From Laetmonice hystrix (taxonomy: Eukaryota), in assembly GCA_965235115.1 (NCBI GenBank), contig OZ249436.1, positions 21,454,001-21,518,000 of the forward strand: DNA of 64,000 bases, written 5' to 3'. A program made the position numbers and the translations under genes. The notes beneath the pieces are model-generated. The model worked only from the letters and a program-made list of their open reading frames with translations, searched no databases and was not told the origin of the DNA. This document shows, piece after piece, positions 33,001 to 64,000 of the stretch (position 1 is the stretch's first letter; each line of letters starts with the position of its first letter).

Positions 33001-36000
33001 ATTACACATTCAAGTGTAACTGAGCACTGTGAATTTGATAATGTAAGTAAAATTTTATTGCACTGTTTGGTATTAGGTTATGGTTATTACTATTAATTCT
33101 TGGATCCCATGCTTTTTAAGGGAACAATGTTATGTGGTCTATTGCTGAGCTTATACAAAGTCACACGTCTCGAGTCGCCGAGCCGTGAGTTGCAAAGTTG
33201 ATTTATCATCTGTATTTCAGCATTGAGTTTGAGTAAAAGAATGAAACTCCTGTTATTAGTACATGAAATATGAATTTTCTTTTTCTTTAGTATTAAGCAG
33301 GCATTTTCGTAATGCTAATCAATTATCTGTCTGCAAAGATATCTTAATTTGTAGCCACAAAAGTGAAAGTCCTGCACAGCATATGGTAGGACATCTGTAA
33401 TATTGAATCTAATTAATGTTGAGTATTTCTGTATTTAGTTAATTCCTAAGAAAGTAGATCACAGTACTTTTTTTATGTGTGCTTTTTCAACATTCCATTT
33501 GCTATGTATATCAGGCAAGTCTTTTATATACATGTACCAGTAACCCATACAGTTCTGGCATTGTACACTTTTAATAAAACTCTCCTGATCTACTACACCT
33601 ATATACAAGTTTAATCTTTGTTTTGGGAAATATTAGTAATCATTGTAAAAATTTTCTACAATCATCAAAATGGCCTAAGTGGTTTTGACTTTCTAACAAA
33701 TAGCATCATTGTATGGAAAGTTCTTTAGATTTTTGGAGAAGAAATAAAGATATGATGGCCATAGAACAGTCAAATAAACAGAAAAGGAATAACCATTTAT
33801 CATCTTAGGCCATTTTGGTTTATGTCAGAACATCTTCTGACAAGAATTGGCGTATGTAATGAGTATGCATGTTTTCCAGACCAATTTAAGGGCATTGTAA
33901 GTCGAAGTGGAGGGGGCCTCAACATGTTTGTTTCAGATGTGTCTTTACATTCTGGCATCCGGCGCAGTTCCAGGGAATCGCAGTGTGTATCCCCTAAATG
34001 TCACACAGAACTTACATTCAGAAATGAACAGCTCTTCACTACTCAAACATGCCCTTAGTTCGGACAATGCTTTTCATGACTCATGAACAAGTTACGGAAG
34101 TCCGAAGTTGACATCTTGTAGGATCTGCCTCTTGATACAATGTGTAACGTTAATGTGTGAAGAGACTATGTATGACTGTTGAGGCCAAAACGTGTACTGT
34201 AGTCCAAATGAGCACAATTACTGTATTGTTCTTCCAACAGTACTGCAAAGACTCCCATTTGGTGCCAGTTTTAGAAAATAAATCATTATTCCCCATGTGG
34301 TTGAAACGTTTCCTGAATTTTAAACGTATCTAGATTTTTAAAAGAGATTGTGAAAATCGGCCCGGAAGCCTTCACTTACCCAAACGCAGATAAATATTTG
34401 GCCAAAACCTTAGTAAAGAAACCATATGGGGGCATACTTTGACCAGACATATTTGAAAGCTAAGAACAGTGTCTTCATGCAGTTTGAGATCATTACTGTC
34501 ATGATCTGTCTTCCATCTGTGCATGATTCCACCACCAAAGTTTGTATTTTTGTAGGCGAAAACAACAAGTACAAAGTGAAGTTCGATGACCCTCGGGTAT
34601 GTAAGAGCTTTCTCCTAGGTTGCTGTCCGCATGACATACTGGCGAGCACGGTAAGTGGACGGTTCAGCAGTGGGGCTTTCTACTACACCCAGTTAGCAAC
34701 GGGGAACACCCGTGAGTAACCTTTGATGGTGTCTTGAGTGTCGGCCCTGTAAATATGTTTTTTTAAACAAGGAATTCTAGATTCTGAGAAGTTTTTAATT
34801 GATTTTAAAGGGCGCGCTCTTGTACACTGGTATTTTAAGTTTGTGAGTGTAGGTGATTCAAATATGCAGTAGATAATTGAGAGAAATATGCTTTTCCCAG
34901 AGCTTAAGTTATTGTAAAATTTGTGTGGTAATTCGAGAATTACTTTTACCATAATATTAGTCTGACATGTTAATTAGACAGAAATGTTGCACTCATTGCT
35001 ACAGTTCATCTGTTATCACTTTATGCTGTATCTATATCCAATGGAAAAAAATTGCTTTCTAGGTATCAGACTTTTTAGAGATATGGGCCTAAAAAGAATT
35101 GAAGCAGCTGCTATGCTTTAGATTATTTGACATGTATTTGTTTTGAATTTGTCGAGAGATGTATATTAGAGGTACATATCCAGATCCAACCAGTAATCGT
35201 TTTCATCTCTTTCAGCGGATGGATCTGGGTGAATGCCCTAAGATCCATGACCTAGCACTGAAAGCAGATTATGAAATGGCCTCTAAGAGGAAGGACTACT
35301 ACTACGACATTGACGTAAGCTAACAAGAAAGTATTCTAACAAGTTTTCCTTAAGCCAGTGATTTTTAATTTGATACAGTTATTAATTGGGTCAGTATACC
35401 ACTGCAATATTTTTTTCCTTATGTTAAACATATGTTGCAAATATTGATCTGAGAAGTGTACAGGCCTCTTATAGATCAGGTAAAATTACCAATACTTCAG
35501 AAATCTTAATGTCGTTTGCTCTATGGAGGTCGGGGATCTCTCTAGGATAGAATTTAAGTGCTCAGCTTCAGCGCACTTTCCCAGCCCAGGAGGCAACCCT
35601 GCTGCAGCGACTGAAATTTTTTTATTTTTTTTTGTCCATACGTGAATTCTGGTGCATTCTGAGAGTAAAATTGGCATCAATTTGTGGGGTCTTTAGACAG
35701 GAAGTAACTTACAAGTGATTTTGCAGGCCATGGAACATCTGCAGAGCTTCATCGCAGATTGCGACCGTCGCACAGAGCTGGCTAAGCGTCGTCTAAAGGA
35801 AACACAAGAAGAACTCAGTGAGGAAGCTAATGCAAAGGTTAGATTATGTTCAGTTTGTTTGAATCGGTCATACTTCACAGTTGGTTTGGCATGTTCAGAT
35901 GTAAGATGTTCAGATCTTTCTTGTTTGATGTCCAATTTGGGCCATCCAGCTCTCCCAGGGGAGTCAAAGTTGTTGGTTATACTCACTGGTATCTTAGAAA

Positions 36001-38736
36001 AGATAGCTGCACTTATCTGTTCCAAGAATTTTTAATATGAAAATTTAATATTTTAGTGCTCTAGATGAAGTATGTTCCAATTCAATCTTCAGATTGAGCC
36101 AGAATTACTCCATAAAACATTGCAAATACTCTGGGATGTGCCCAAAAAAAAGAGTGTCAGGCGATAGTTTTGCACTAGCACCGAAGGTGCAAGGTTGGTT
36201 TTCAGTTGGCAAGGGGTGTGGGTGAGGGGTTATTTTTTCAGATGACAGCCCTAATAAAAATTCCTGCCGGGCGGCACTTGAACCTTTTTAGTTTTGTGCC
36301 GGGCGACTAAAATCTGTGGCGGGCCTGCCCAGCGTTGCCACATCTCTGAATACTGTAAGAGAGGCATCATTGTTTATCTTGTCTGTTTCAGGCAGAGGTA
36401 ATCCATCAGCTTGGTGAACAGATTGGAACAAAATTAGCAAGGGCTGAGGAGGTTGGCGCAGAGGGTAACGTGGACGAGTCATTGGCCGCCATGAATGAGG
36501 TGGAGGAGTTGAAGAAAAAGAAGGCCCAAGCTGAGGTGAGCTTTTCTTCTGTCAACTTTTGGTAAGAGGACGTTCTGTACTTGACTGGTATTGTAATATA
36601 TTTAAGGAAATATATTTAGCCACTTGTATTATAATATATTTAAGGAAATATATTTAGCCTTTAATTGAGAGCTGCAGGGGTAAGGACTTATTTATATTGT
36701 TTACAAAGTGAAATTCACTCGTAAATATTGTTTAATTTCAGATTGAGTACCGAAACTCGATGCCAGCCTCAAGCTACCAACAACAAAAGTTGAGAGTTTG
36801 TGAAGTGTGTTCAGCTTACTTAGGAATTCATGACAATGATCGTCGTCTAGCAGACCATTTTGGTGGAAAACTACATCTGGGATTTATTACGATTAGACAA
36901 AAACTTGCTGAGCTTCAGGTAAGTGTGAAGAATTTTCTAGATCACTAAAAACATTACATATATCTGAATTAATGTATATTACAATAGGACACCAATACCA
37001 TCTAAAATTGGAGGATGATACATTTAAATTTTGCGTCCATATTATGCGTAAATATGGAGGAAAGTTGCGTTAACACAAATGCTGTTTTTACTGTTGAAAT
37101 AAGAAATATTGGGTAAGAAATAGGAAACAGATTTTGTACACTTGCTTTGAGGTAACATGATTTATGATTGTCTTGAGATGAGTGATATAATGCAAAATTG
37201 TAATTTTTCCTTTCTTTTCAGGCTAAAATAGAAGCATCCCCACAAGACGTTGCTTTGGTAGGTTTTGCCGAATTAATAAGTGAAACAAGCAAACTTGCTG
37301 CAGGATACTAATTCAAAAATTGTGACATCAAAACTCATAGATAAAAACAAGATGAGTCTGAAATAAAGAATTGAATTGAATAGTGTGAATTTACCGCATT
37401 GTATAGAAGAAAAATTACACTTCATTGTTACAGTATTTGAGGTACATGTATTTGCATGTGAGAAAAAAATATTTAAGTCAGAAGTGCCACTACTTCTTTT
37501 GGATAAGACCTTGACTTGCATTACTTACAGAAAAGTGTTCAAGAACGTAGACTACAACGGGAGAAAGAACGGGAAGAGCGACGTCGTGAACGAGATGAAA
37601 ATGAAAAGAGGCGAAGTCAGAGTGCTGAAAGAGAAAGGGAAAGAGAGCGTGAGAGGGAACGTGAGAGGGAAAAAGAGAGGGACCATGAAAGAGAGAGAGA
37701 AAGCAGGCGCAGCCGGAAGAGAACTAGAAGTCGCAGCCGAAGTCACAGTCGTGATCACGAGAGACGCCGGAGAAGATCAAGGTCAAGAAGCAGGGAACAT
37801 GGTCGACGACACCGGTATGGCCTGGCCACATCTTATCAAACACGTTTTCAACATAATATCTTTAGTCTAAATCAATTTAAATTTAATTTGATGCTAAACC
37901 TCTGAAGTAAACAATATATCTGGTAGATTCTCCTGGAATATTTAGCCTTATTGATTTAAATCGACTTTTTTTAAAATCTCTAGATCACGGTCTAAGAGTG
38001 ACAGACATAGACGCTCCAGATCAAGGGAAAGGCGTTCACGCTCCAGGTCAGGATCACGGCGCTCACGTTCAAGGAGGTCACGATCAGGATCCAGGTCAAG
38101 GAGGAGGATGAAGAGGTCACGGTCGAGGTCACGGTCAAAATCAAAGCGATCTAAGTCAAGGTCTAGATCAAGGTCCAGGTCTAAAAGGTATGCCTGATTT
38201 TCAGACTTTTTTTTCGCCTATGAAACAAGATTTAGAAAGCTAAAAGCTTACATTTTCAACTAACATGTATTAGGATAGTATTGTTAACATTTTGTTTATT
38301 GAAATGACATGCACATGTTTGTATATTGTTTACTCAATGTTGTGGGACCTTTCTTTTTCTAGGTCACGCCGCTCAAGGTCAGCCGAGAAGTCTAGGAGTG
38401 AATCTCCAAAGAAAACCAAAGAGAGGTAGCTATGGTTCACTTGAATAAATCAATTAAGCTGCAACTTGAAAAAAAATTGAAACTGCTAACAATAAAAACA
38501 TTTTAGAGGTGACTTAGAGGTTAAACTTTGAGTTGTTTGACGTTATGTTTATCTTATAGTTGTAATTTGGAGATTCTGAAATAATGTCGAAGATTGAGGT
38601 GGCTGTGCATGTTGCATTGTTTGTTGGTTGGTGCTATCACTTACGATTACAAAATTTCCCTTAAAGAGATGAAAACGGCGACTCCATGCTAGCCGCTGCA
38701 GCTGCCGCCACTACCCCAGAGAACCACACCGATTGA
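27086..38736 (+). CDS. LUC7L: LUC7-like U1 snRNP-associated splicing factor (LUC7L/LUC7L2 family), complete
   Basis: Exons 27086-27146 (MSAHDQIRAMLDQLMGTGRDG), 34556-34650 (FDDPRVCKSFLLGCCPHDIL, ZnF1), 35216-35314 (RMDLGECPKIHD), 35727-35837, 36392-36535, 36742-36918 (QQQKLRVCEVCSAYLGIHDNDRRLADHFGGKLH, ZnF2), [37222-37257], 37531-37814, 37984-38187, 38363-38425 (RE/RS domain), 38667-38736 (TGA); all phases consistent. Confidence 0.96.
27565..28260. mobile_element. PIF/Harbinger-like MITE in LUC7 intron 1
   Basis: 30-bp TIR GGGGTGCGTTTCACAACCGCTTGTCGTGCG / CGCACGACAAGCGGTTGTGAAACGCACCCC with CAG/CTG context; superfamily call is inference from G-rich ends. Confidence 0.8.
31139..31239. mobile_element. 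Short MITE
   Basis: CAGGGTGACCACA / TGTGGTCACCCTA; flanks GTAGCA / GTAGAA; internal CAGGGAAAA repeats. Confidence 0.7.
37222..37257 (+). CDS. LUC7L: 36-nt cassette exon of LUC7-like gene
   Basis: Strong tract tttttcctttcttttcag|, AKIEASPQDVAL, |gtaggt; phase 0-0. Confidence 0.65.
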
Positions 38737-43046: not shown

Positions 43047-43741
43047 GCTGTCTCAATTTAGAACATAATCTAGGAGTATGGGGAAAAAACTAACTGCATC
43101 ACAGAATCGTTGGGAAGGGAATATGTACTCATTTTTGATTCTCTTTGTGTTTAAGTACAGAACCATTTTTCAAATATTTGATGATACAACTGCCTTCACG
43201 AAACATTATACCTGATTTGTAAAAGTTAGAGAAAGTTATGATGACCATGGAATGAACTGTGCACGTTCAATATGTACAACAGCAAAATATACAATTTGAA
43301 TTCTTCGCCCACTCAGGTTTATGTGGTAACTTAATTGATGTAATAATGAATGTCAAACGAATGTCGGTTGCAATCATTTTGAACTACCGTATGATATACC
43401 CTATCATGGAATAAATACTACGACTACCGAGTTGAATGTGCAGTCTTTCAATGTTCATCATATCTTTCTCAAATATGTGGCATTTGTGAAGAAGCTTGGA
43501 AAATAAAAATGTTAAAATTCTTTGGAACTAACTTGATAGGAGTAATCCTGGCAATATCTACAAAAGTAACATAACAAGTCTTCTTGCTTACTACCGGTAC
43601 ATCTCACTCACGGTCTGCGAGTACCGGTACACTTCTTGTGTCAAGAGCGACTTTTTCAGGATATGAGTTGTCACAGTCTATACACTCTCAGTACCCACTA
43701 CTGTGATACACTGCTGACAGGGAGACCTATATTACATTACA

Positions 43742-43846
43742 AGACAATTTACCAGACATTCCTGTCCTTTCAGCACCCGAGGTCTCAGAACAGTTTTAAG
43801 TACGTCTTTAACCTGTAACTGACATAATATTGTTAGGGCCAATGCC
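43742..43846 (-). pseudogene. Out-of-frame relic of the recombinase catalytic C-terminus
   Basis: Shifted frame after LRD reads GIGPNNIMSVTG*RRT*NCSETSGAERTGMSGKLS, resembling the Crypton tail G....IM..TGH....L..Y......R..MS..L. Confidence 0.7.
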
Positions 43847-46800
43847 TGTCTCTGAGAGATGTCGCAGTTGTTGCCCTAATACAATGGTTTGTGTAACGGT
43901 AGGACAACTGTGCTCTCTCCGAGATGCGAGGCATGAAATCAGATATAGTATTAACACCTAAAGGGTTCTTCCAGTACCAGATATTCCCTCCAAGGAACTT
44001 TGACGTCATTGGACGTTGTAAGAAAGCATCACTTTCTGGGTTAAGCCTAGATAAATAAAACTTTAAGGACCGAATTGGGCACCTTGCATCTCCTGTGGCA
44101 TACATGCGTTGGTCATGCTCATTCTCCCTCTTCTGGTTCTTGTCAAGGTTATTGAAGCACAGTGTGGCATACTCTTTACCTGAAGCATCGGTTTTAAAGA
44201 CAATATTGTCCTTCTTTAAATCTCTGAAACCGTGTCTGCCCATGCGTCCAAGGTGGTAGGATATTTCAAAGAAAACTTTACTCTGAAGGGATGTGGGGTC
44301 GCACCCTGACAGTACACCCGAGTTATACATTTTCTGCATATCGGAAGCAGTGATAGTGGGTTTGTGCCCTGAAGTTCTATCAATACCTTGCATTTTAAGG
44401 ATCCTTATTTTCCCAAAAATAACATCATTTGCTGCTTTAAACATACCACCAGATATTATGTCTATTTTGAGGTTGTGGGGAGGACCTGCAAGGTGCCTCT
44501 GGATGCACGCCCTTAAACACATCAAGGATGACCTTGAGTATTGTTCCGACTTCTTGTTACGGGCTTCACCATAAAAGCGGCGGAGAGTGTCAGCCAGAAT
44601 ATCTTCTGGGAGGTTCTCGAAGTCTGTTTGCAACTCGTTTTCAATGAGCCATTCTGAAATTAAAACATAAGGGGGAAAAAACAAATTAAAATCTTGCCTA
44701 AAATATTTTCAAGTGAAAGACAGGTGACTTACTTCCATGCATATATCAAGACAGAAACAAACCTCTCTCTCGAGTGCCTTGGCTTGATGTTTGACCAATA
44801 GAAGCTCAATATTTTGACAAACTCTCATGAAGGGGTGACTGTCATACCAGATTCTATGGAAGACTCTTGCCTTCCGAGTAAAGGTCAGGAATTTAAGAAT
44901 GGCTTCTGCAACTTTTATGGCTAGGCCTATCTTGGTTATTATTAACTTTAAATTGGTAACTCACCGCGTAATACTCCGATTCCCCAAGATGTTTGCTGGC
45001 GGGTCCGAGCCGATCTTGAGTTGCCATTTGTCTGCCCATTCGTCTGAAGTTTGTCCAGGTCCTCGGGGGCCATCTTCTCAAAGCGGGGCCTTGGAGTCTG
45101 CATTGAGTTTGGATCGACCAAGTCATCTGCATCTTCCCATGGTTCTTGGCTTACTGAAACATTGTCTTCCTCATCCCAAGGTGGTTGTGTGCAATGCACA
45201 GAAGGCGGGGTAGTTTCTATATTATCCTCATGCATCGGTTGATCCATCCGATGTGTCAACTGATGACAAAACTCCTCGGGTTTTCGCATATCTTGCTTCA
45301 CACGTCCAGTGTTCAATAAACACTCTGACAGGACACCTGAGTTATACACTTTCTGCACATTTGGATTACTGTTCGGTTTGTGCTCTGAGTATTTGTCCAA
45401 ACCTTGCATCTCTGGGTTTCTTGTCTGACCAAAAATAACATCATTTGCAGTTTTAAACATACCACCAGATATTATGTTAATTTTGAGGTTGTTGGGAGGA
45501 GCTGCAAGGTGCCTCTGGATGCACGCCCTTAAACATGTCAAGGATGACCTTGAGTATTGTTCTGACCTCTTGTTACGGGCTTCGCCATAAAAACGGCGGA
45601 GAGTGTCAGCCAGAACATCTTCCGTGAGGTTCTCGAAGTCTGTTTGCAACTCGTTTTCACTAAGCCATTCTGAAAATATCCAAAGAAAGAGATTAAAACT
45701 CTCCCTACTAACAGAAAAAACCCTATTAACAGGGGTGGTACGATATGGTTATGTCACGATACGATACATATGTTGCAATACTAGAGCCAGTCAATTTCCG
45801 CGATTGCGGAATCGCGGACGGAATTGCGGAATTTACTATTTGAAACGGAATTTACTATCTGAAACGGAATTTCCAGTGTAAAACGGAAAATAACGGAAAA
45901 CGCCTTTTTTACTACTGGTAATTCCTCAGCCGACCGTATACAGTGTAGCTGGGACCTGGGTTGGCCTGGCTGGACCCGCTAGAGGAGTGGGGTGGGAGGG
46001 TCATGAATATGCTCGAGCTTTTGTTAGAGCAAACAGAATGGACTCGCAAATGTGACAGGTGTGCAGATATGGTTGTGCATTTTTTGTGACACCTTGTATA
46101 CTGAGAAAATACTAAAACGAAAAAAAACCGGAATTTTAAAAGTTCAAAACGGAATTCCCTGTCAAGGATCACGGAATCTGACTGGGTCTACAATACATAC
46201 ATCACAATACAATATGTATCACAATAAATACTGCAAACTCCACTGCAGAGAAATCTCTCTGTAATAATCATCTCATCCATGGGCCCGTTTTACTAAAGGT
46301 CAATAATAACGACGACGATAATTTAACATAGAAGTGAATGGTTGCTAGTTCGTTATTTTCAACCTAGCAACCCATTCACTTCTATGTTAAATTTTCGACG
46401 TCATTATTTTCGACTGTTTAGTAAAACAGGCCCCAGAGTCCACCAAATCAAGTGACGATGAGCCTCAAGGCATGACATTTGACACTGGAACAGCTTACGA
46501 TCAATCGTTTGGATAGCCGTTGTAGCATTACTACCCTTCCAATCTGGCATAAAACTTGTTGGACTAAAGCTTTTTCTTTATATTTGAACAAAAAATCCTG
46601 GGCAACCATGTTTTGTTGTTGGACAACCAATTTTGAGCTTTGAGCAACCACATTTCTGAGGGATTTGACAGGCCTGTCATAATTTATAAGCCTTTCTCAG
46701 TGTTCTCCACAGGGTCGAGCCAAGGTCGGGCGGCCCCATGTGACGAGGGGCGAGAGGCGAGCGCCGAAGAAGCGCGAGGCTTTCGGTTTGGGGGGGGGTC

Positions 46801-48121
46801 TGGGGGTCCTCCTCCAGAAAATTTTGAAATGTAGAAGCCCGGAGATGCAATTTCCCGGCATCTGGGAGAGAAAATGACTGCGTAGGGGGACTGGGTTAGT
46901 CAGACGGCGAGTGTGACGTAGTTAGGCTGTGTCAAATCGTTATTTAACCAGCTCTAAGACTAAGGCCCAGTAAGAGTACATGATTCATTGCTTCTGGGAT
47001 AAGTGAGTTTAGATGATTGGAATGGATTTTAAGGTGGGCGGTCGGCCGCCAAGGTCGGGCGGTCGGCCGCCAAGGTCGGGCGGCCCACTGCGAAGGTCGG
47101 GCAGCCCGCCCGACCTTGGAGCCTTGTGGAGAACACTGTTTCTTTACAACAAAATTTTAATGTATTACTTAGTACTATTACCATGTTCTTCATTCTGGGT
47201 CATTTCAAGGGGTTATATATACGGGGTGTATGTTCATCTAGAATTGACATATAAAATGGAAGTCAGACGGCAGAATAAATGAATTAGTTTGACTTATTAC
47301 CGACACAAAACAATGTTTCGGTTAGGGTTAAGCCTGGCGTTAGTGTTAGTTTAGACCCAAAATTGTTGTTAATTAGGCACTTATTAGATAATCTGCTATT
47401 CTGCTGTCAGACACCAATAAGAATCCAGTATTGCTGTCACATGACCTATTCATACACCGGCAGAATAACCACTGCCTAAAAATTATAATGCCAATAACTC
47501 ACTGCGCAAAACTCCAATTCCCCAAGATGTTTGCTGATCGGTCCGAGCCGATTTTGTATTCCCATTTGTTTGAAGCTTGTCCAGGTCCTCGGGTGCCATC
47601 CTCTCAAACCGTGGTTTCCTAGTCTGTATTGGGTTGGCGTCGGCTGAACCATCCTCGTCTTCCCAGGGCTCTTCAGCATCCTGGCTTACTGAAACAGCGT
47701 CTTCGTCATCCCACGGCTGCTGTTTGCAATGTATGGAAGGCGGGGTAGTTTCTACGTTATTCTCGAAGTCATCCTCCCCTTTCCACGGTTCCTGGCTTAC
47801 TGAAAGGCTGTCTCCGTTGTACCAAGGCTGTTGGTTAGTTTCTACTTTAATATCCTTGAGGACCCTCGGTTGATCCAACCCCTGTGGACAGTGTGGTACC
47901 TGTGGACAGTGTGAGTGTGGTGCCTGGTCCGGCTTCGAGTCGGTGGATCTTCGCATGTTTCCATCGACAGCGGTGACAACACGTCCAGTGTTCAATAAAC
48001 ATACTCCATATTTATGAACACAAAATCCACGAAGTGTCATTGTCTGAACCACCCCAATGGTCCATTTTCCTTCCACAAGAACATCGACCAACTCGCCCAG
48101 ACGAAAGTAAGTCTGAGACAT
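43833..48121 (-). CDS. Crypton tyrosine-recombinase-derived protein (DUF3504-like; KCTD1/ZMYM/QRICH1/KIAA1958-type domain), 714 aa, predicted catalytically dead
   Basis: Exons 48121-47503, 45669-44965, 44653-43833 (gtgagt donors, tttcag acceptors, phase 1-1; 2145 nt open). Motifs LRRFYGEARNK..YSRSSL..LRACIQRHL, LQSKVFFEISYHLGRMGRH, DKNQ, CPIRSLKFYLSRLNP..DAFLQRP, WY...PLGVNTI..FMPRIS....LS..YTNHCIRAT. Confidence 0.85.
45782..46190. mobile_element. MITE, 6-bp TSD, nested in an older CGATAC-rich element
   Basis: TAGAGCCAGTCAATTTCCGCGAT / ATCACGGAATCTGACTGGGTCTA; CAATAC on both flanks; internal ACGGAAT repeats. Confidence 0.85.
46281..46434. mobile_element. Fold-back MITE (Harbinger-like)
   Basis: Almost fully palindromic: GGGCCCGTTTTACTAAA...AATTTAACATAGAAGTGAATGG / CCATTCACTTCTATGTTAAATT...TTTAGTAAAACAGGCCC. 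Confidence 0.8.
46698..47138. mobile_element. MITE, 5-bp TSD (hAT5-like)
   Basis: Perfect 14-bp TIR CAGTGTTCTCCACA / TGTGGAGAACACTG; TTTCT on both flanks; subterminal AGGTCGGGCGG repeats. Confidence 0.88.
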
Positions 48122-48225
48122 GTTGTTGTGGTTTCACACGTCCATTGCGGGCAAGCCATTCCCATAATGCATGTTACTTCCGGAAACAACCTGCCTCAGC
48201 AGTTTCGTTCTCCGGTCGTTCCCGC
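48122..48225 (-). promoter_or_regulatory. Compact promoter/5' UTR of the Crypton-derived gene
   Basis: CAACAACATG start context; ZNF143/Staf-like TTCCCATAATGC (48159-48170); ETS CCGGAAGT (48176-48183); CpG-rich. Confidence 0.5.
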
Positions 48226-48261
48226 CCGGTGTCACAGTCTGAAAGGACAGGTGTGTACAGG

Positions 48262-49410
48262 TGTGCCATGAAATATTGCAGTCATGAAATATTGCAGTAA
48301 TGCGTCAAAATGCGGCAATATTTCATGACTGCAATTGCCATTGGCTATGAAATATTGCAGTCATGAAATATTGCCTCATTGACATTGCGCTTTCGTACTG
48401 CAATATTTCATGACTGCAAGATTTCATAGGCGGCATTATTTCATAGCTATAGGCTGTGAAATATGGCAGTCCGTGGAATATTGCAGCATTTCATCACTGC
48501 AATATTTCATAGGCGGCATTATTCCATAGCTATAGCTATGAAATATTGCAGTCCGTAGAATATTGCAGCATCTCATGACTGCAATATTTCATAGCTATAG
48601 ATCTAGCTATGGCTATGGAATAATGCCGCCTATGAAATATTGCAGTCTTGAAAAAGCCTAGTAGGCTACTGCAATATTCCACGGACTGCAATATTTCATA
48701 GCTATAGCTATGGAATAATGCCGCCTATGAAATATTGCAGTCTTGAAAAACCTGGTAGGCTACTGCAATATTCCACGGACTGCAATATTTCATAGCTATA
48801 GCTATGGAATAATGCCGCCTATGAAATATTGCAGTCTTGAAAAAGCCTAGTAGGCTACTGCAATATTTCACGGACTGCAATATTTCATAGCTACAGCTAT
48901 GCAATAATGCCGCCTATGAAATATTGCAGTCTTGAAAAAGCCTAGTAGGCTACTGCAATATTCCACGGACTGCAATATTTCATAGCTATAGCTATGGAAT
49001 AATGCCGCCTATGAAATATTGCAGTCTTGAAAAACCTGGTAGGCTACTGCAATATTCCACGGACTGCAATATTTCATAGCCATAGCTATGGAATAATGCC
49101 GCCTATGAAATATTGCAGTCTTGAAAAAGCCTAGTAGACTACTGCAATATTCCACGGACTGCAATATTTCATAGCTACAGGCTATGACATATTGCTGCCT
49201 ATGAAATAATGCAGTGATGCAATACTGCAATATTTCATAGGCAGTAATATTTCATAGCCTGTACCTATGAAATATTGAAGGCTATGAAATATTGCAGTAT
49301 TGCGTCACTGCAATATTTCATAGGCAGCAATATTTCATAGCTACAGGCTATGAAATATTGCAGTGACGCAATGCTGCAATATTTCATAGGCAACAATATT
49401 TCATAGTACA
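48262..49410. mobile_element. Nested TGT...ACA element built from ATGAAATATTGCAG motifs
   Basis: cagg|TGTGCCATGAAATATTG ... CAATATTTCATAGTACA|ccgg; whole body made of direct and inverted copies of the motif. Confidence 0.7.
48590..49180. repeat. 94-95-bp tandem satellite, ~6 copies
   Basis: G(G/C)AATAATGCCGCC recurs at 48617, 48712, 48806, 48901, 48996, 49090. Confidence 0.95.
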
Positions 49411-50731
49411 CCGGCCAGTCCAGAAGGGCCGGTTGTGTCTAGACAGCACTAAGTTCAAAGGACGCGCATGCGAGCCATAACTCACTTCCCGCGTTAGCCG
49501 AAAGTGATGCTAGCGACCGCGGCGACCGTGCCAGACGTTCCGCTTGACACCGACAAGGGAAGACACACTCACCCAGGATAGGGTAGTGGTATCATTGTTG
49601 CCTTTCCTTGGCTTGCAAGTTAGAAATGTATAATTGTGAATGGTATATGTTAATAGGGGCCTATGTGAATATAGCTTTGGGTTCATTCTTGGTTTTATTG
49701 CTACAAAGCTAATAATATGTCACTTTAAGAAGTTTGTAATAGGGCCGATAAGTGTGTTTTAAACCACAGTTTTTTGTTGTCTGCTATAGAGTCTAGGCTC
49801 GATTCCAGATAGTCTACGCATATAAGGCCGATAATCGTAGGCCTATATGAAGAAGTTATACCTACATTTTAAGTTCATTTTCGTCCATTTTGTTTGTCGC
49901 AACCGGGACTTAGGAAGGACATATATTTTACTGATCCAGTGGTCATACATCAGGATTTCTCACCGGCGGGGGGGGGGGGGGGGCGGTCGACGATGTGGCG
50001 GACAAAGCTCCACTTTAGAAGCGCTGAAGGCGTGCATAAATATCGACCTAGGCCTATTACATTGTATAATACTTGTCCCATTTACGCGATAATGACAGAA
50101 TATTTCCCCATAATTTTATTACCGAAATGTCAAGGAAATGTCAAGGATTTAGGCCCTTGTCTCAAATTATTTCTACAGGATAAATATAGGCCCCTAGGCC
50201 TATATTGCACAGGTCAAATTTTGTTTATGTACTTATTATTTTTTCTACCATAGACTGTGTTTCGACTGAATAAAGATAATATTTCCAGTACAAGTTGCCA
50301 TGTATAGGCCCTATTTATCTCTGCCCACTAAAAGAAACCCACTCGATTGATGCATAACTTGCCGATGACAGACTAACTGTCATGGATTCTATAGGCTTAA
50401 TTTGCCCGGAACTTTCAGACCACCTAGCCGGCCCTTCTGGCACGTTACATGTAGTTTAATATTGTGTGTTTACTATTAATTCCACGGAATAAAGTTAGTA
50501 TTTCCAGCTCCCTTCTAGGCCTAGATCTATATGTGGCACGGTAATTTCATCCTACGCGGCCCTTGTGGCACGGTACTTTCAGACTGCCCGGCCCTTCTGG
50601 CACGTTACATACAACGTGCCAGAAGGGCTGGGTGTAGTGGCTTCATTCCGGCGCATGCGCACTTACCGGAACCGGCCCGTCTGGCACGCCGGCCGGTCCA
50701 GACCGCCACACCGGCACCAAATCCGATGGTC

Positions 50732-53700
50732 CGTATCTTCTCCAAATTTTAACATTAGATGCTCCTGGCCTGTACCTTTCCATTCCACTACCTCACTGTA
50801 CTGTTTGCTTGGCTACTGGTCACTGTACTCTTTGCTTGTATACAACAGTAGCCAGTAAGGCACTCCTCATGCTTCATGTTTCCATGCCTTTATTGTCCAG
50901 GAGGCAGGCCATACGTTTCGTCTATGATCTACTCCCATCTAATCTGTGTCCCCTACAGACTATCTTTAAGCGTGCGACAACGTTGTCAGGTCGTCCCAAT
51001 GACTGTTTGCCGTAAAGGTTTAGTTAACAATGGCAAATGACGTTGTACGCCTTTTCTATATCAGATATCCCATCCCCAAGTAAGAAACAAACAAAGAAAG
51101 AGTACAGAGATGTTGCAGGCAAGAAACACCAGGGTGCAGCGCAGCTCTACTGAAGAGGCGGCGGGGGCGGCGACTGCACTGCCATCTTCCGGCTACCGGT
51201 GGAATCACCACGTATACCTGGCCGGGCTGGCGGGCACCTGTGGCTCTTAGGTTAAAGTAATGAGAAGCGAAAAATGGCTACTATTTTGATACGTCAAATT
51301 GAAACTACGCCCCCCAAAGTTATGATTCTTAGGCCAGATGTATCACTGTCAAACGTATAGGTCTCGTAGGGCCTACGTTCGCTACAGATACTATATGGTT
51401 GTGATGTGTAGGCCTATGCTTCCCATTTGAGTATCTTCTCCAGATTTTAACATTAGATGCTCCTCGCCAGTACCTTTCATTTCCACTACCTCACTGTGTT
51501 TGCATGACTACTAGGACAGTCGGTAAGATGTACGGACTTCTCACTCTACTGGTTGGCCCCCCACACTGCTTGGCCTCACAGTGTACTGTTTGGCCTCACT
51601 GCACTCTTTGGCCTCACTGTAGTGTTCGCTGGGGTGCTAGGCCAGCCAGTACCTTGTGGCGATTCCTCACTGTAGGCCTACCGTTTGTCCCCCCTGTACC
51701 GTTTGCTTGTATACAACAGTAGCCAGTAATATAGGGACGACTCATGTTTCATGTTTCCATGCCTTTATTGTCCAGGAGGCAGGCCATACGTTTCGTCTAT
51801 CATCTACTCCCATCTAATCTATGTGCCTAACAGACCATCTGTAAGCGTGCGACAACGTTGTCAGGTCGTCCCAATGACTGTTTGCCGTAAATGTTTAGTT
51901 AACAATGGCAAATGACGTTGTACGCCTTTTCTATATCAGATATCCCATCCCCAAGTAAGAAACAAAAAGAAAGAGTACAGAGGTGTTGCAGGCAAGAAAC
52001 ACCAGGGTGCAGCGCAGCTCTACTAAAGCGGCGGCGGGGGCGGCGACTGCACTGCCATCTTCCGGCTACCGGTGGAATCACCACGTATACCTGGCCGGGC
52101 TGGCGGGCACCTGTGGCTCTTAGGTTAAAGTAATGAGAAGCGAAAAATGGCTACTATTCTGATACGTCAAATTGAAACTACGCCCCCCCCCCAAAGTTAT
52201 GATTCTTAGGCCAGATGTATCACTGTCAAACGTATAGGTCTCGTACGTTCGCTACAGATATATGGTTGTGATGTGTAGGCCTATGCTTCCCATTTGAGTA
52301 TCTTCTCCAGATTTTAACATTAGATGCTCCTCGCCAGTACCTTTCATTTCCACTACCTCACTGTGTTTGCATGACTACTAGGACAGTCGGTAAGATGTAC
52401 GGACTTCTCACTCTACTGGTTGGCCCCCCACACTGCTTGGCCTCACAGTGTACTGTTTGGCCTCACTGTACTCTTTGGCCTCACTGTAGTGTTCGCTGGG
52501 GTGCTAGGCCAGCCAGTACCTTGTGGCGATTCCTCACTGTAGGCCTACCGTTTGTCCCCCCTGTACCGTTTGCTTGTATACAACAGTAGCCAGTAATATA
52601 GGGACGACTCATGTTTCATGTTTCCATGCCTTTATTGTCCAGGAGGCAGGCCATACGTTTCGTCTATCATCTACTCCCATCTAATCTATGTGCCTAACAG
52701 ACCATCTGTAAGCGTGCGACAACGTTGTCAGGTCGTCCCAATGACTGTTTGCCGTAAATGTTTAGTTAACAATGGCAAATGACGTTGTACGCCTTTTCTA
52801 TATCAGATATCCCATCCCCAAGTAAGAAACAAAAAGAAAGAGTACAGAGGTGTTGCAGGCAAGAAACACCAGGGTGCAGCGCAGCTCTACTAAAGCGGCG
52901 GCGGGGGCGGCGACTGCACTGCCATCTTCCGGCTACCGGTGAAATCACCACGTATACCTGGCCGGGCTGGCGGGCACCTGTGGCTCTTAGGTTAAAGTAA
53001 TGAGAAGCGAAAAATGGCTACTATTCTGATACGTCAAATTGAAACTACGCCCCCCCCCCCCAAAGTTATGATTCTTAGGCCAGATGTATCACTGTCAAAC
53101 GTATAGGTCTCGTACGTTCGCTACAGATATATGGTTGTGATCTGTAGGCCTATGCTTCCCATTTGAGTATCTTCTCCAGATTTTAACATTAGATGCTCCT
53201 CGCCAGTACCTTTCATTTCCACTACCTCACTGTAGTGTTTGCATGACTACTAGGACAGTCGGTAAGATGTAGGGACTTCTCACTCTACTGGTTGGCCCCA
53301 AACACTGCTTGGCCTCACAGTGTACTGTTTGGCCTCACTGTACTCTTTGGCCTCACTGTAGTGTTCGCTGGGGTGCTAGGCCAGCCAGTACCTTGTAGCG
53401 ATTCCTCACTGTACCGTTTGTCCTCCCTGTACCGTTTGCTTGTATACAACAGTAGCCAGTAATATAGGGACGCCTCATGTTTCATGTTTCCATGCCTTTG
53501 TCGTCCAGGAGGCAGGCCATACCTTTCGTCTATCATCTACTCCCATCTAATCTATGTCCCTCACAGACCATCTGTAAGCGTGCGACAACGTTGTCAGGTC
53601 GTCCCAATGACTGTTTGCCGTAAATGTTTAGTTAACAATGGCAAATGACGTTGTACGCCTTTTCTATATCAGATATCCCATCCCCAAGTAAGAAACAAAA

Positions 53701-56700
53701 AGAAAGAGTACAGAGGTGTTGCAGGCAAGGAACACCAGGGTGCAGCGCAGCTCTACTGAAGCGGCGGCGGGGGCGGCGACTGCACTGCCATCTTCCGGCT
53801 ACCGGTGGAATCACCACGTATACCTGGCCGGGCTGGCGGGCACCTGTGGCTCTTAGGTTAAAGTAATGAGAAGCGAAAAATGGCTACTATTTTGATACGT
53901 CAAATTGAAACTACGCCCCCCAAAGTTATGATTCTTAGGCCAGATGTATCACTGTCAAACGTATAGGTCTCGTACGTTCGCTACAGATATATGGTTGTGA
54001 TGTGTAGGCCTATGCTTCCCATTTGAGTATCTTCTCCAGATTTTAACATTAGATGCTCCTCGCCAGTACCTTTCATTTCCACTACCTCACTGTAGTGTTT
54101 GCATGACTACTAGGACAGTCGGTAAGATGTACGGACTTCTCGATCTACTGGTTGGCCCCCCGCACTGCTTGGCCTCACAGTGTACTGTTTGGCCTCACTG
54201 TACTCTAAGTCTTTGGCCTCACTGTAGTGTTCGCTGGGGTGCTAGGCCAGCCAGTACCTTGTAGCGATTCCTCACTGTACCGTTTGTCCTCCCTGTACCG
54301 TTTGCTTGTATACAACAGTAGCCAGTAATATAGGGACGCCTCATGTTTCATGTTTCCATGCCTTTATTGTCCAGGAGGCAGGCCATACGTTTCGTCTATC
54401 ATCTACTCCCATCTAATCTATGTCCCTTACAGACCATCTGTAAGCGTGCGACAACGTTGTCAGGTCGTCCCAATGACTGTTTGCCGTAAAGGTTTAGTTA
54501 ACAATGGCAAATGACGTTGGACGCCTTTTCTATATCAGATATCCCATCCCCAAGTAAGAAACAAAAAGAAAGAGTACAGAGGTGTTGCAGGCAAGAAAAA
54601 CCAGGTTGCAGCGCAGCTCTACTAAAGCGGCGGCGGGGGCGGCGACTGCACTGCCATCTTCCGGCTACCGGTGGAATCACCACGTATACCTGGCCGGGCT
54701 AGCGGGCACCTGTGGCTCTTAGGTTAAAGTAATGAGAAGCGAAAAATGGCTACTATTCTGATACGTCAAATTAAAACTACGCCCCCCCCCCAAAAAGAAA
54801 GTTATGATTCTTAGGCCAGATGTATCACTGTCAAACGTATAGTTCTCGTACGTTCGCTACAGATATATGGTTGTGATGTGTATATGCTTCCCATTTGAGT
54901 ATCTTCTCCAGATTTTAACATTAGATGCTCCTCGCCAGTAGCCTACCTTTCATTTCCACTACCTCACTGTAGTGTTTGCATGACTACTAGGACAGTCTGT
55001 AAGATGTAGGGACTTCCCACTCTACTCGTTGCCCCCCGCCCCCCACACTGCTTGGCCTCACAGTGTACTGTTTGGCCTCACTGTACTCTTTGGCCTCACT
55101 GTAGTGTTCGCTGGGGTGCTAGGCCAGCCAGTACCTTGTAGCGATTCCTCACTGTACCGTTTGTCCTCCCTGTACCGTTTGCTTGTATACAACAGTAGCC
55201 AGTAATATAGGGACGCCTCATGTTTCATGTTTCCATGCCTTTATTGTCCAGGAGGCAGGCCATACGTTTCGTCTATCATCTACTCCCATCTAATCTGTGT
55301 CCCTACAGACTATCTTTAAGCGTGCGACAACGTTGTCAGGTCGTCCCAATGACTGTTTGCCGTAAAGGTTTAGTTAACAATGGCAAATGACGTTGTACGC
55401 CTTTTCTATATCAGATATCCCATCCCCAAGTAAGAAACAAAAAGAAAGAGTACAGAGGTGTTGCAGGCAAGAAACACCAGGGTGCAGCGCAGCTCTACTG
55501 AAGAGGCGGCGGGGGCGGCGACTGCACTGCCATCTTCCGGCTACCGGTGGAATCACCACGTATACCTGGCCGGGCTGGCGGGCACCTGTGGCTCTTAGGT
55601 TAAAGTAATGAGAAGCGAAAAATAGCTACTATTCTGATACGTCAAATTGAAACTACGCCCCCCCCAAAGTTATGATTCTTAGGCCAGATGTATCACTGTC
55701 AAACGTATAGGTCTCGTACGTTCGCTACAGATATATGGTTTGATGTGTATGCTTCCCATTTGAGTATCGTCTCCAGATTTTAACATTAGATGCTCCTCGC
55801 CAGTACCTTTCATTTCCACTACCTCACTGTAGTGTTTGCATGACTACTAGGACAGTCGGTAAGATGTAGGGACTTCTCACTCTACTGGTTGGCCCCCCCC
55901 CCACACTGCTTGGCCTCACAGTGTACTGTTTGGCCTCACTGTACTCTTTGGCCTCACTGTAGTGTTCGCTGGGGTGCTAGGCCAGCCAGTACCTTGTAGC
56001 GATTCCTCACTGTACCGTTCGCCCTCCCTGTACCGTTTGCTTGTATACAACAGTAGCCAGTAATATAGGGACGCCTCATGTTTCATGTTTCCATGCCTTT
56101 GTCGTCCAGGAGACAGGCCATACCTTTCGTCTATCATCTACTCTCATCTAATCTATGTCCCTAACAGACCATCTGTAAGCGTGCGACAACGTTGTCAGGT
56201 CGTCCCAATGACTGTTTGCCGTAAATGTTTAGTTAACAATGGCAAATGACGTTGTACGCCTTTTCTATATCAGATATCCCATCCCCAAGTAAGAAACAAA
56301 AAGAAAGAGTACAGAGGTGTTGCAGGCAAGAAACACCAGGGTGCAGCGCAGCTCTACTGAAGAGGCGGCGGGGGCGGCGACTGCACTGCCATCTTCCGGC
56401 TACCGGTGGAATCACCACGTATACCTGGCCGGGCTGGCGGGCACCTGTGGCTCTTAGGTTAAAGTAATGAGAAGCGAAAAATGGCTACTATTTTGATACG
56501 TCAAATTGAAACTACGCCCCCAAAGTTATGATTCTTAGGCCAGATGTATCACTGTCAAACGTATAGGTCTCGTACGTTCGCTAAAGATATATGGTTGTGA
56601 TGTGTAGGCCTATGCTTCCCATTTGAGTATCTTCTCCAGATTTTAACATTAGATGCTCCTCGCCAGTACCTTTCATTTCCACTACCTCACTGTAGTGTTT

Positions 56701-59700
56701 GCATGACTACTAGGACAGTCGGTAAGATGTACGGACTTCTCACTCTACTGGTTGGCCCCCCACACTGCTTGGCCTCACAGTGTACTGTTTGGCCTCACTG
56801 TACTCTTTGGCCTCACTGTAGTGTTCGCTGGGGTGCTAGGCCAGCCAGTACCTTGTAGCGATTCCTCACTGTACCGTTTGTCCTCCCTGTACCGTTTGCT
56901 TGTATACAACAGTAGCCAGTAATATAGGGACGCCTCATCTTTCATCTTTCCATGCCTTTATTGTCCAGGAGGCAGGCCATACGTTTCGTCTATCATCTAC
57001 TCCCATCTAATCTATGTCCCTTACAGACCATCTGTAAGCGTGCGACAACGTTGTCAGGTCGTCCCAATGACTGTTTGCCGTAAAGGTTTAGTTAACAATG
57101 GCAAATGACGTTGTACGCCTTTTCTATATCAGATATCCCATCCCCAAGTAAGAAACAAAAAGAAAGAGTACAGAGGTGTTGCAGGCAAGAAACACCAGGG
57201 TGCAGCGCAGCTCTACTGAAGAGGCGGCGGGGGCGGCGACTGCACTGCCATCTTCCGGCTACCGGTGGAATCACCACGTATACCTGGCCGGGCTGGCGGG
57301 CACCTGTGGCTCTTAGGTTAAAGTAATGAGAAGCGAAAAATGGCTACTATTCTGATACGTCAAATTGAAACTACGCCCCCCCCCCCCCCAAAGTTATGAT
57401 TCTTAGGCCAGATGTATCACTGTCAAACGTATAGGTCTCGTACGTTCGCTACAGATATACGGTTGTGATCTGTAGGCCTATGCTTCCCATTTGAGTATCT
57501 TCTCCAGATTTTAACATTAGATGCTCCTCGCCAGTACCTTTCATTTCCACTACCTCACTGTAGTGTTTGCATGACTACTAGGACAGTCGGTAAGATGTAG
57601 GGACTTCCCACTCTACTCGTTGCCCCCCGCCCCCCACACTGCTTGGCCTCACAGTGTACTGTTTGGCCTCACTGTACTCTTTGGCCTCACTGTAGTGTTC
57701 GCTGGGGTGCTAGGCCAGCCAGTACCTTGTAGCGATTCCTCACTGTACCGTTTGTCCTCCCTGTACCGTTTGCTTGTATACAACAGTAGCCAGTAATATA
57801 GGGACGCCTCATGTTTCATGTTTCCATGCCTTTATTGTCCAGGAGGCAGGCCATACGTTTCGTCTATGATCTACTCCCATCTAATCTATGTCCCTTACAG
57901 ACCATCTGTAAGCGTGCGACAACGTTGTCAGGTCGTCCCAATGACTGTTTGCCGTAAAGGTTTAGTTAACAATGGCAAATGACGTTGTACGCCTTTTCTA
58001 TATCAGATATCCCATCCCCAAGTAAGAAACAAAAAGAAAGAGTACAGAGGTGTTGCAGGCAAGGAACACCAGGGTGCAGCGCAGCTCGACTGAAGCGGCG
58101 GCGGGGGCGGCGACTGCACTGCCATCTTCCGGCTACCGGTGGAATCACCACGTATACCTGGCCGGGCTGGCGGGCACCTGTGGCTCTTAGGTTAAAGTAA
58201 TGAGAAGCAAAAAATGGCTACTATTTTGATACGTCAAATTGAAACTACGCCCCCCAAAGTTATGATTCTTAGGCCAGATGTATCACTGTCAAACGTATAG
58301 GTCTCGTACGTTCGCTACAGATATATGGTTGTGATGTGTAGGCCTATGCTTCCCATTTGAGTATCTTCTCCAGATTTTAACATTAGATGCTCCTCGCCAG
58401 TACCTTTCATTTCCACTACCTCACTGTAGTGTTTGCATGACTACTAGGACAGTCGGTAAGATGTACGGACTTCTCACTCTACTGGTTGGCCCCCCACACT
58501 GCTTGGCCTCACAGTGTACTGTTTGGCCTCACTGTACTCTTTGGCCTCACTGTAGTGTTCGCTGGGGTGCTAGGCCAGCCAGTACCTTGTAGCGATTCCT
58601 CACTGTACCGTTTGCCCTCCCTGTACCGTTTGCTTGTATACAACAGTAGCCAGTAATATAGGGACGCCTTATGTTTCATGTTTCCATGCCTTTATTGTCC
58701 AGGAGGCAGGCCATACGTTTCGTCTCTCATCTACTCCCATCTAATCTATGTCCCTTACAGACCATCTGTAAGCGTGCGACAACGTTGTCAGGTCGTCCCA
58801 ATGACTGTTTGCCGTAAAGGTTTAGTTAACAATGGCAAATGACGTTGTACGCCTTTTCTATATCAGATATCCCATCCCCAAGTAAGAAACAAAAAGAAAG
58901 AGTACAGAGGTGTTGCAGGCAAGGAACACCAGGGTGCAGCGCAGCTCTACTGAAGCGGCGGCGGGGGCGGCGACTGCACTGCCATCTTCCGGCTACCGGT
59001 GGAATCACCACGTATACCTGGCCGGGCTGGCGGGCACCTGTGGCTCTTAGGTTAAAGTAATGAGAAGCGAAAAATGGCTACTATTCTGATACGTCAAATT
59101 GAAACTACGCCCCCCAAAGTTATGATTCTTAGGCCAGATGTATCACTGTCAAACGTATAGGTCTCGTACGTTCGCTACAGATATATGGTTGTGATGTGTA
59201 GGCCTATGCTTCCCATTTGAGTATCTTCTCCAGATTTTAACATTAGATGCTCCTCGCCAGTAGCCTACCTTTCATTTCCACTACCTCACTGTAGTGTTTG
59301 CATGACTACTAGGACAGTCTGTAAGATGTAGGGACTTCCCACTCTACTCGTTGCCCCCCGCCCCCCACACTGCTTGGCCTCACAGTGTACTGTTTGGCCT
59401 CACTGTACTCTTTGGCCTCACTGTAGTGTTCGCTGGGGTGCTAGGCCAGCCAGTACCTTGTAGCGATTCCTCACTGTACCGTTTGCCCTCCTTGTACCGT
59501 TTGCTTGTATACAACAGTAGCCAGTAATATAGGGACGCCTCATGTTTCATGTTTCCATGCCTTTATTGTCCAGGAGGCAGGCCATACGTTTCGTCTATCA
59601 TCTACTCCCATCTAATCTATGTCCCTTACAGACCATCTGTAAGCGTGCGACAACGTTGTCAGGTCGTCCCAATGACTGTTTGCCGTAAAGGTTTAGTTAA

Positions 59701-62700: not shown

Positions 62701-64000
62701 CGAAAAATGGCTACTATTTTGATACGTCAAATTGAAACTACGCCCCCCAAAGTTATGATTCTTAGGCCAGATGTATCACTGTCAAACGTATAGGTCTCGT
62801 ACGTTCGCTACAGATATATGGTTGTGATGTGTAGGCCTATGCTTCCCATTTGAGTATCTTCTCCAGATTTTAACATTAGATGCTCCTCGCCAGTACCTTT
62901 CATTTCCACTACCTCACTGTAGTGTTTGCATGACTACTAGGACAGTCGGTAAGATGTACGGACTTCTCACTCTACTGGTTGGCCCCCCACACTGCTTGGC
63001 CTCACAGTGTACTGTTTGGCCTCACTGTACTCTTTGGCCTCACTGTAGTGTTCGCTGGGGTGCTAGGCCAGCCAGTACCTTGTAGCGATTCCTCACTGTA
63101 CCGTTTGTCCTCCCTGTACCGTTTGCTTGTATACAACAGTAGCCAGTAATATAGGGACGCCTCATGTTTCATGTTTCCATGCCTTTATTGTCCAGGAGGC
63201 AGGCCATACGTTTCGTCTATCATCTACTCCCATCTAATCTATGTCCCTTACAGACCATCTGTAAGCGTGCGACAACGTTGTCAGGTCGTCCCAATGACTG
63301 TTTGCCGTAAAGGTTTAGTTAACAATGGCAAATGACGTTGTACGCCTTTTCTATATCAGATATCCCATCCCCAAGTAAGAAACATAAAGAAAGAGTACAG
63401 AGGTGTTGCAGGCAAGGAACACCAGGGTGCAGCGCAGCTCTACTGAAGCGGCGGCGGGGGCGGCGACTGCACTGCCATCTTCCGGCTACCGGTGGAATCA
63501 CCACGTATACCTGGCCGGGCTGGCGGGCACCTGTGGCTCTTAGGTTAAAGTAATGAGAAGCGAAAAATGGCTACTATTCTGATACGTCAAATTGAAACTA
63601 CGCCCCCCAAAGTTATGATTCTTAGGCCAGATGTATCACTGTCAAACGTATAGTTCTCTTACGTTCGCTACAGATATATGGTTGTGATGTGTATGCTTCC
63701 CATTTGAGTATCTTTTCCAGATTTTAACATTAGATGCTCCTCGCCAGTACCTTTCATTTCCACTACCTCACTGTAGTGTTTGCATGACTACTAGGACAGT
63801 CGGTAAGATGTACGGACTTCTTACTCTACTGGTTGGCCCCCCACACTGCTTGGCCTCACAGTGTACTGTTTGGCCTCACTGTACTCTTTGGCCTCACTGT
63901 AGTGTTCGCTGGGGTGCTAGGCCAGCCAGTACCTTGTAGCGATTCCTCACTGTACCGTTTGTCCTCCCTGTACCGTTTGCTTGTATACAACAGTAGCCAG
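50732..64000. repeat. ~866-bp tandem repeat array, 15 units plus a partial 16th, continuing beyond the window
   Basis: Anchors at 51912, 52779, 53645, 54511, 55387, 56246, 57105, 57979, 58839, ~59710, 60735, 61606, 62472, 63332 (period 859-876; 1025 where a MITE is inserted). First unit ~700 bp and diverged. Internal TTGGCCTCACTGT sub-repeats. Confidence 0.98.
60267..60432. mobile_element. 166-bp MITE inserted in one array unit, 5-bp TSD
   Basis: CTCTT|CAGGGCTGTCCA ... TGGCCAGCCTTG|CTCTT; other units show the empty site gta-CTCTT-tggcc. Confidence 0.95.

Follow-up and report, generated by a model that had tools for sequence, protein, structure and literature searches.

Crypton recombinases carry an R-H-R-Y catalytic tetrad, and in the passages of Kojima and Jurka 2011 (PMC3212892) cited here the recombinase is the only recognisable domain of animal Cryptons, for which no terminal repeats are reported. 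The same passages describe four ancient domestications of Cryptons in animals, together with candidates in tunicates and in an ATF7IP intron, and state that the human Crypton-derived genes all lack the Tyr and the second Arg. Incipient Glomhopper cases are described in passages of PMC13465315. A related class consists of the KRABINER-type factors, which the cited part of bioRxiv 10.1101/2020.05.07.082677 presents as fusions of host domains to transposases of DNA transposons, such as mariner, that bind their cognate transposons. Here we describe a gene in a 64,000-nucleotide (nt) stretch of the Laetmonice hystrix genome (assembly GCA_965235115.1, contig OZ249436.1, positions 21,454,001 to 21,518,000), which we call the window. 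The gene occupies window positions 43833 to 48121 on the minus strand and encodes a catalytically broken Crypton-type recombinase. It is likely an independent Crypton domestication retained by the host, and its closest relatives form an intact transposon family in the same genome.

The gene shares with KCTD1, KIAA1958, QRICH1, ZMYM2/3/4 and WOC a catalytically dead Crypton recombinase fold under purifying selection, and differs from them in several respects. The domesticated DUF3504 genes are ancient, whereas the sister family of this gene is still young in the same genome. The human genes lost the Tyr and the second Arg, whereas this gene keeps the HxxR motif and lost the first Arg. Unlike the KCTD1/QRICH1/ZMYM/WOC group, it consists of transposon sequence only and lacks a BTB domain, zf-FCS and any Q-rich part; the same genome has WOC as a separate gene. 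Compared with KRABINER it is an unfused tyrosine recombinase, whose binding is putative. With CryptonA transposons it shares DUF3504 and the start, intron and N-terminal domain of the intact family in this genome; unlike them, it has a broken catalytic set, a single copy and an internal duplication, and no element ends were found at it. The tunicate, ATF7IP-intron and Glomhopper candidates resemble it in being lineage-restricted and of the same origin; they belong to other lineages, and the cited passages mention neither an internal duplication nor an active sister family in their case. In the literature searched, which leaves most subscription journals outside, we saw no description of a dead Crypton gene accompanied by an active sister family; Repbase or supplements may describe the family.

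The gene has three exons on the minus strand (48121-47503, 45669-44965 and 44653-43833) joined by GT-AG introns, both in phase 1, and encodes 714 residues followed by a stop codon (43835-43833), with zero internal stops. This confirms the uninterrupted 714-codon spliced frame proposed in a first-pass annotation made from the sequence alone. In box I (lesions at 44232..44243, minus strand), the catalytic Arg is replaced by Met (codon 44243-44241), as the GRMGRH reading of that annotation had it, and the Glu by His (44234-44232). The HxxR motif is retained as HCIR from residue 698 (43875..43886, minus strand), also as annotated. The annotation further held that the protein stops before the second His and the Tyr; both are indeed missing, but this is not a simple end, because a 2-nt deletion near 43849 shifts the frame, and the old C-terminus (43733..43849, minus strand) continues in decayed form behind the stop. 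Read past the stop, the old frame has TAA in place of the His (43810-43808), a 9-nt deletion, a second TAA (43798-43796) and TGT (Cys) in place of the Tyr (43792-43790). The tetrad thus retains its His and second Arg. Since the Tyr nucleophile and the first Arg are gone, cutting is impossible by the established chemistry of tyrosine recombinases.

By sequence comparison, the gene is descended from a Crypton recombinase. Exon 3 matches DUF3504 (Pfam, E 4e-11, over the cut-off) in the profile search that the annotation had suggested, and it has 24 matches in the genome (627 Mb, 35 contigs). The closest of these, L002 and L003, are 63% identical and catalytically intact. In a phylogeny with other Cryptons, both recombinase copies of the window are sister to L002/L003 and nested among intact relatives, with a support of 100 in the Shimodaira-Hasegawa-like approximate likelihood ratio test (SH-aLRT). 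This was a quick search with 93 rows; its database rows were drawn from the first 70 by identifier, and it excluded short rows and a WOC fragment (L029). The sister element, to which L002 and L003 belong, is 3725 bp long and is present in two copies (L015 and L016, at G000:C1:45630362-45634086 and C8:29414188-29417911), which are 98.5% identical and have unrelated flanks. Its protein of 513 residues has the same start, the same intron position and phase, and the same N-terminal domain as the gene. At least 39 further sequences match the 3' end of the element at 100% (of 144 candidates, 39 were scored), and most of them lie beside a 5'-end match of 97-100%. The two nearly identical full copies and these identical 3'-end matches indicate that the sister family spread very recently. 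The split between the gene and the sister element is old, as synonymous sites are saturated between them, with a rate of non-synonymous substitution (dN) of 0.275; because the synonymous rate (dS) is saturated, we claim no dN/dS ratio (omega) for this pair. The coding DNA of the gene is single copy, as it matches only itself in the genome (the search gives lower bounds), and the many dispersed near-identical copies expected of a decaying transposon were not seen. The genome search yielded neither another copy of the duplicated form nor a derivative of it, and near the gene within the window we found no similarity to the ends of the sister element.

We note several features of the Cryptons in this genome. 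The sister CryptonA element has sharp ends (about TTAG...CTAA), a 115-nt 5' hairpin and a short subterminal inverted repeat. Its short copies number at least 39, are near-identical and ~750 bp long, and some are in tandem. Another Crypton recombinase (L004/L017, G000:C5:30625856-30626671) has an intact catalytic set and an N-terminal barrel as in the gene, and its coding region has no other DNA match among 40 candidates scored. A second two-copy Crypton family (L007 and L008, at C8:25.35 Mb and C11:22.43 Mb) is 97.7% identical over 2.4 kb.

Exon 2 (235 codons) is an internal tandem duplication, in which sequence copied from the 5' part of exon 3 is joined, near 45322, to sequence copied from the 3' part of exon 1. 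The 5' half of exon 2 has 86% identity to the start of exon 3 and the 3' half has 75% identity to the end of exon 1, while the two introns share zero sequence. The duplication, the decayed C-terminal remnant and the active sister family were all missed in the first-pass annotation. An assembly artefact was ruled out, as the DNA-like sequencing runs span both the junction of the duplication and the frameshift and list no indel at either. The protein thus has two core-binding domains, the first separated from an N-terminal small barrel by an acidic linker and from the second by a further linker; a truncated catalytic domain follows. Exon 1 (residues 1-206) encodes an SH3/Tudor-like barrel, an acidic repeat expansion and the first core-binding-domain helices; exon 2 supplies the second core-binding domain, and exon 3 the truncated core-binding and catalytic fold of a tyrosine recombinase. 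The small beta-barrel (residues 1-59, 47945..48121, minus strand) is 53% identical to that of the sister transposon. Its resemblance to SH3/Tudor folds (Atlas scores 0.80-0.91, one source) is a lead only, and its profile gave nothing significant against 158 database proteins, most of them partial.

A search of PDB sequences gave zero matches. For the QRICH1 domain, exons 2 and 3 give weak matches that fall short of its cut-off. A structure model was built from a 106-row alignment, with a predicted local distance difference test score (pLDDT) of 93; it was used instead of a single-sequence fold, which reached a pLDDT of 33. The top structural match of the model is QRICH1 in 9HJT (Z 15.8, root-mean-square deviation (rmsd) 3.5, 157 aligned), where QRICH1 is in a DNA complex with a zinc-finger factor. 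The model also matches residues 55-305 of Cre (Z 14.3, rmsd 4.7, 237 aligned), and ends at Cre 305 without the C-terminal part. Trp315 and Tyr324 of Cre lie past this residue, and the C-terminal helix of Cre mediates subunit contacts. In this model, the DNA clamp is structurally intact. One core-binding helix is identical to the sister at 11 of 12 positions, compared with at most 9 in 143 other rows, and by analogy with Cre this helix would read bases. The core-binding domain is the part closest to the sister recombinase, and it is also the part that was duplicated.

The two internal duplicates allow selection to be estimated within the gene. Over 196 codons, the codon model gives an omega of 0.31 (p 1e-6 against 1), and not the value near 1 that the annotation had associated with a decaying transposon. 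By part, the recombinase half has an omega of 0.46 (p 0.02) and the part from exon 1 has one of 0.21; the corresponding values by the NG86 method are 0.38 and 0.15. Purifying selection therefore acted between the duplicates. The dS is 0.16 in the first 80 duplicated codons (45430-45669 compared with 44410-44653) and 0.66 in the others, a pattern suggestive of gene conversion between the core-binding domains. Upstream of the frameshift, 33 of 35 conserved columns are kept. These columns are shared with L002 and reach at least 90% conservation among the 84 rows whose R-H-R-H-Y set is intact; three of them are fixed by the row filter itself. The two lost columns are the Arg and Glu of box I, and every structural column is kept. 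Counted without the filter over 158 homologues, 36 of 38 columns are kept. In the remnant behind the frameshift, three of eight such columns are lost (Fisher p 0.037). Both stops of the old frame lie in this 37-codon remnant, and the 714 preceding codons have none (p 0.0024 for 37 of 751 codons). These observations suggest that selection may have continued after the inactivation.

Four sequencing runs of one sample cover the stretch, none of which is on record as RNA. Runs X1-X3 (517-600 million letters) are DNA-like and cover the introns. Run X4 (58 million letters) has zero depth in the bin of intron 2 and a far lower ratio of repeat to unique depth. In contig 27 of this run, the alignment begins at 44965, exactly the donor site, and at letter 45 of the record; the bin depths of X4 (13.8 and 7.34) are reproduced exactly if the other 44 letters sit at 44610-44653, which ends at the exact acceptor site. 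The bin depths of this one run suggest that the contig is a spliced transcript of exons 2 and 3 that carries the frameshift. A contig of X4 also covers the probable 3' untranslated region (43480..43832, minus strand), and the RNA-like contig in the short 5' region (48122..48250, minus strand) begins at 48155. When the runs are compared with the window, exon 3 has zero variants and the 311-nt intron 2 has eight; this contrast is weak evidence, as the sites are linked, come from one sample and do not count as independent.

The first-pass annotation saw no BTB, MYM finger or Q-rich part, in agreement with our searches, in which zf-FCS was absent from the three exons and BTB gave zero matches in the exons or in the 106 window open reading frames of at least 75 residues. 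Orthology to WOC/ZMYM was ruled out, as the host has a zf-FCS + DUF3504 gene elsewhere that is weakly similar to exon 3 (best E 0.007). This WOC/ZMYM-like gene (L041, G000:C6:30301000-30311000, at C6:30.30-30.31 Mb) has zf-FCS and DUF3504 exons. Orthology to KIAA1958 is argued against by the recent sisterhood to an intact transposon, in a tree that holds no named KIAA1958 sequence. The proposal of the annotation, an independent domestication as a non-catalytic factor, is supported by the single copy, the omega of 0.31 and the separate WOC/ZMYM gene; three of the four contrary outcomes it had named (dispersed copies, neutral dN/dS and orthology to a described gene) were looked for, and none was found. 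The lineage specificity and the regulatory role in that proposal are putative.

We propose that a CryptonA copy became fixed at this locus and lost its ends, and that the host retained the whole recombinase gene. The tandem duplication would have given it a second core-binding domain and, in either order, the box I changes and the frameshift would have abolished the cutting chemistry by removing the Arg, the Glu, the second His and the Tyr. The product would be a non-cutting DNA clamp, most likely with the site preference of the sister. Bound to ends like those of the sister family, the clamp could block or poison the active recombinase, or regulate at the many short copies. DNA binding and the target sites are predictions from the sequence and the model; binding of sister-like sites is favoured because the predicted clamp is intact and its core-binding domain is closest to the sister. 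We consider the chances about even that the product binds sister-like sites without cutting them, whether as a competitor, a poison subunit or a regulator. The fuller proposal is that a dead, host-encoded recombinase, equipped with two core-binding domains, attaches to the ends of its active sister family and either restrains this family or links its copies in a new regulatory network; this is possible and we hold it tentatively. A point on the other side is that the site preference may have drifted, as synonymous sites between the gene and the sister are saturated.

The host may instead have retained the protein as a chromatin or transcription cofactor unrelated to Crypton sites, in the manner of WOC/ZMYM or of QRICH1 in Zincore (cited in a passage of PMC13538652). 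All of the selection evidence fits this explanation equally well, and the top structural match is QRICH1, complexed on DNA with a zinc-finger factor. Binding to DNA or to protein was also proposed for domesticated Crypton domains in the cited passages of Kojima and Jurka (PMC3212892). The gene, however, has captured no host domain, and the part that was duplicated is the one closest to the sister recombinase. We therefore regard a cofactor role as rather unlikely.

Several observations weigh against host retention and would fit a transposon copy that died fairly recently, with a low omega inherited from its mobile past, a frame open by chance and a passive transcript. The omega of 0.31 may date from the active phase, since the duplication may have preceded the inactivation. 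The inactivation itself may be fairly young, because the remnant is identical to the sister at 20 of 37 positions (54%), against ~63% expected by regression, so that its decay is modest. No orthologue was found among the proteins searched: exon 3 gave two matches among 656 longer candidates and eight among 181 of near length (E 1e-20), and a further search covered the best 150 of 4359 representatives, none of these being an orthologue; the libraries contain few animal proteins and are clustered at 50-90%, which makes the search weak. The best near-full-length database matches are 51-53% identical, below the 63% of the sister in the genome. The runs differ from the window at nine coding positions, of which five are non-synonymous, four of these in exon 2. 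Run X4 is not RNA on record, its exon 2-3 joint is absent from the rows shown, and the exon 1-2 joint is unseen. Many DUF3504 copies in the genome carry stops, so one clean copy could be picked by chance. The clustering of the old-frame stops in the remnant was noticed post hoc at a locus picked for its open frame, and its p value becomes ~0.08 after multiplication by the 34 DUF3504 matches. Against a dead copy, simulated neutral drift of 0.05 substitutions per site left the frame free of stops in 1.3% of 2000 runs, while a drift of 0.02 predicts 0.09 stops in the remnant, where two are present. The absence of element ends, of structural column losses and of any further copy or derivative with the duplication also speaks against it, and we judge it unlikely. 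That the protein is a non-catalytic helper, an accessory or architectural partner in the transposition of the sister family, is very improbable: it has helices and an N-terminal domain in common with a very recently spread family, but a single immobile locus gains nothing from transposition, so that a benefit to the host would be needed, and the protein lacks the C-terminal part that Cre uses for subunit contacts.

Since the described animal DUF3504 genes are ancient, the first role of a dead recombinase domain cannot be reconstructed from them. A dead gene and an intact, recently spreading family in one genome let the onset of Crypton domestication, whether in DNA binding or in transposon control, be tested. 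If host retention is correct, a Crypton domestication has been caught with parent and product in one genome. With sharp ends and a large number of identical short copies, the intact family also lends itself to tests of animal Crypton mobility.

The start codon of the gene is in a good context, as annotated (A at -3), and is that of the sister transposon. Of the housekeeping-type promoter in the annotation, the ETS-like and GC-box motifs CCGGAAGT (48176-48183) and GGGCGGG (48221-48227) are present in the short 5' region, as candidate motifs of which presence alone is established. Intron 1 (1833 nt, 45670..47502, minus strand) lies at the position of the intron of the transposon and holds several repeat insertions. 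The annotation described both introns as filled with miniature inverted-repeat transposable elements (MITEs); this is true of intron 1 and not of intron 2 (44654..44964, minus strand), which has single-copy depth in the three DNA-like runs. A high-copy MITE in intron 1 (45782..46190, no strand assigned) is flanked by a 6-bp duplication and has at least 39 other genome matches at 93-97% (40 of 2646 candidates were scored). A joint that skips this MITE (window 45775-46191) is found in three runs, consistent with a polymorphic insertion.

Repeats lie on the 5' side of the gene. One of them, at 48250-49415, is a dispersed repeat that is internally palindromic and contains tandem units of 95 bp; it was inserted upstream of the start codon, at a distance of ~130 bp. 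A search of Rfam over the window gave zero matches. A Rap-GAP-domain gene (7000-14000), presumably TSC2-like, and a LUC7-family gene (34000-38000) lie on the plus strand and are usable as synteny anchors. The open reading frames of a tandem array, scanned up to ~52.6 kb, gave no Pfam match; this array occupies 50800-64000, consists of ~870-bp units that are 95-98% identical, and runs past the end of the window.

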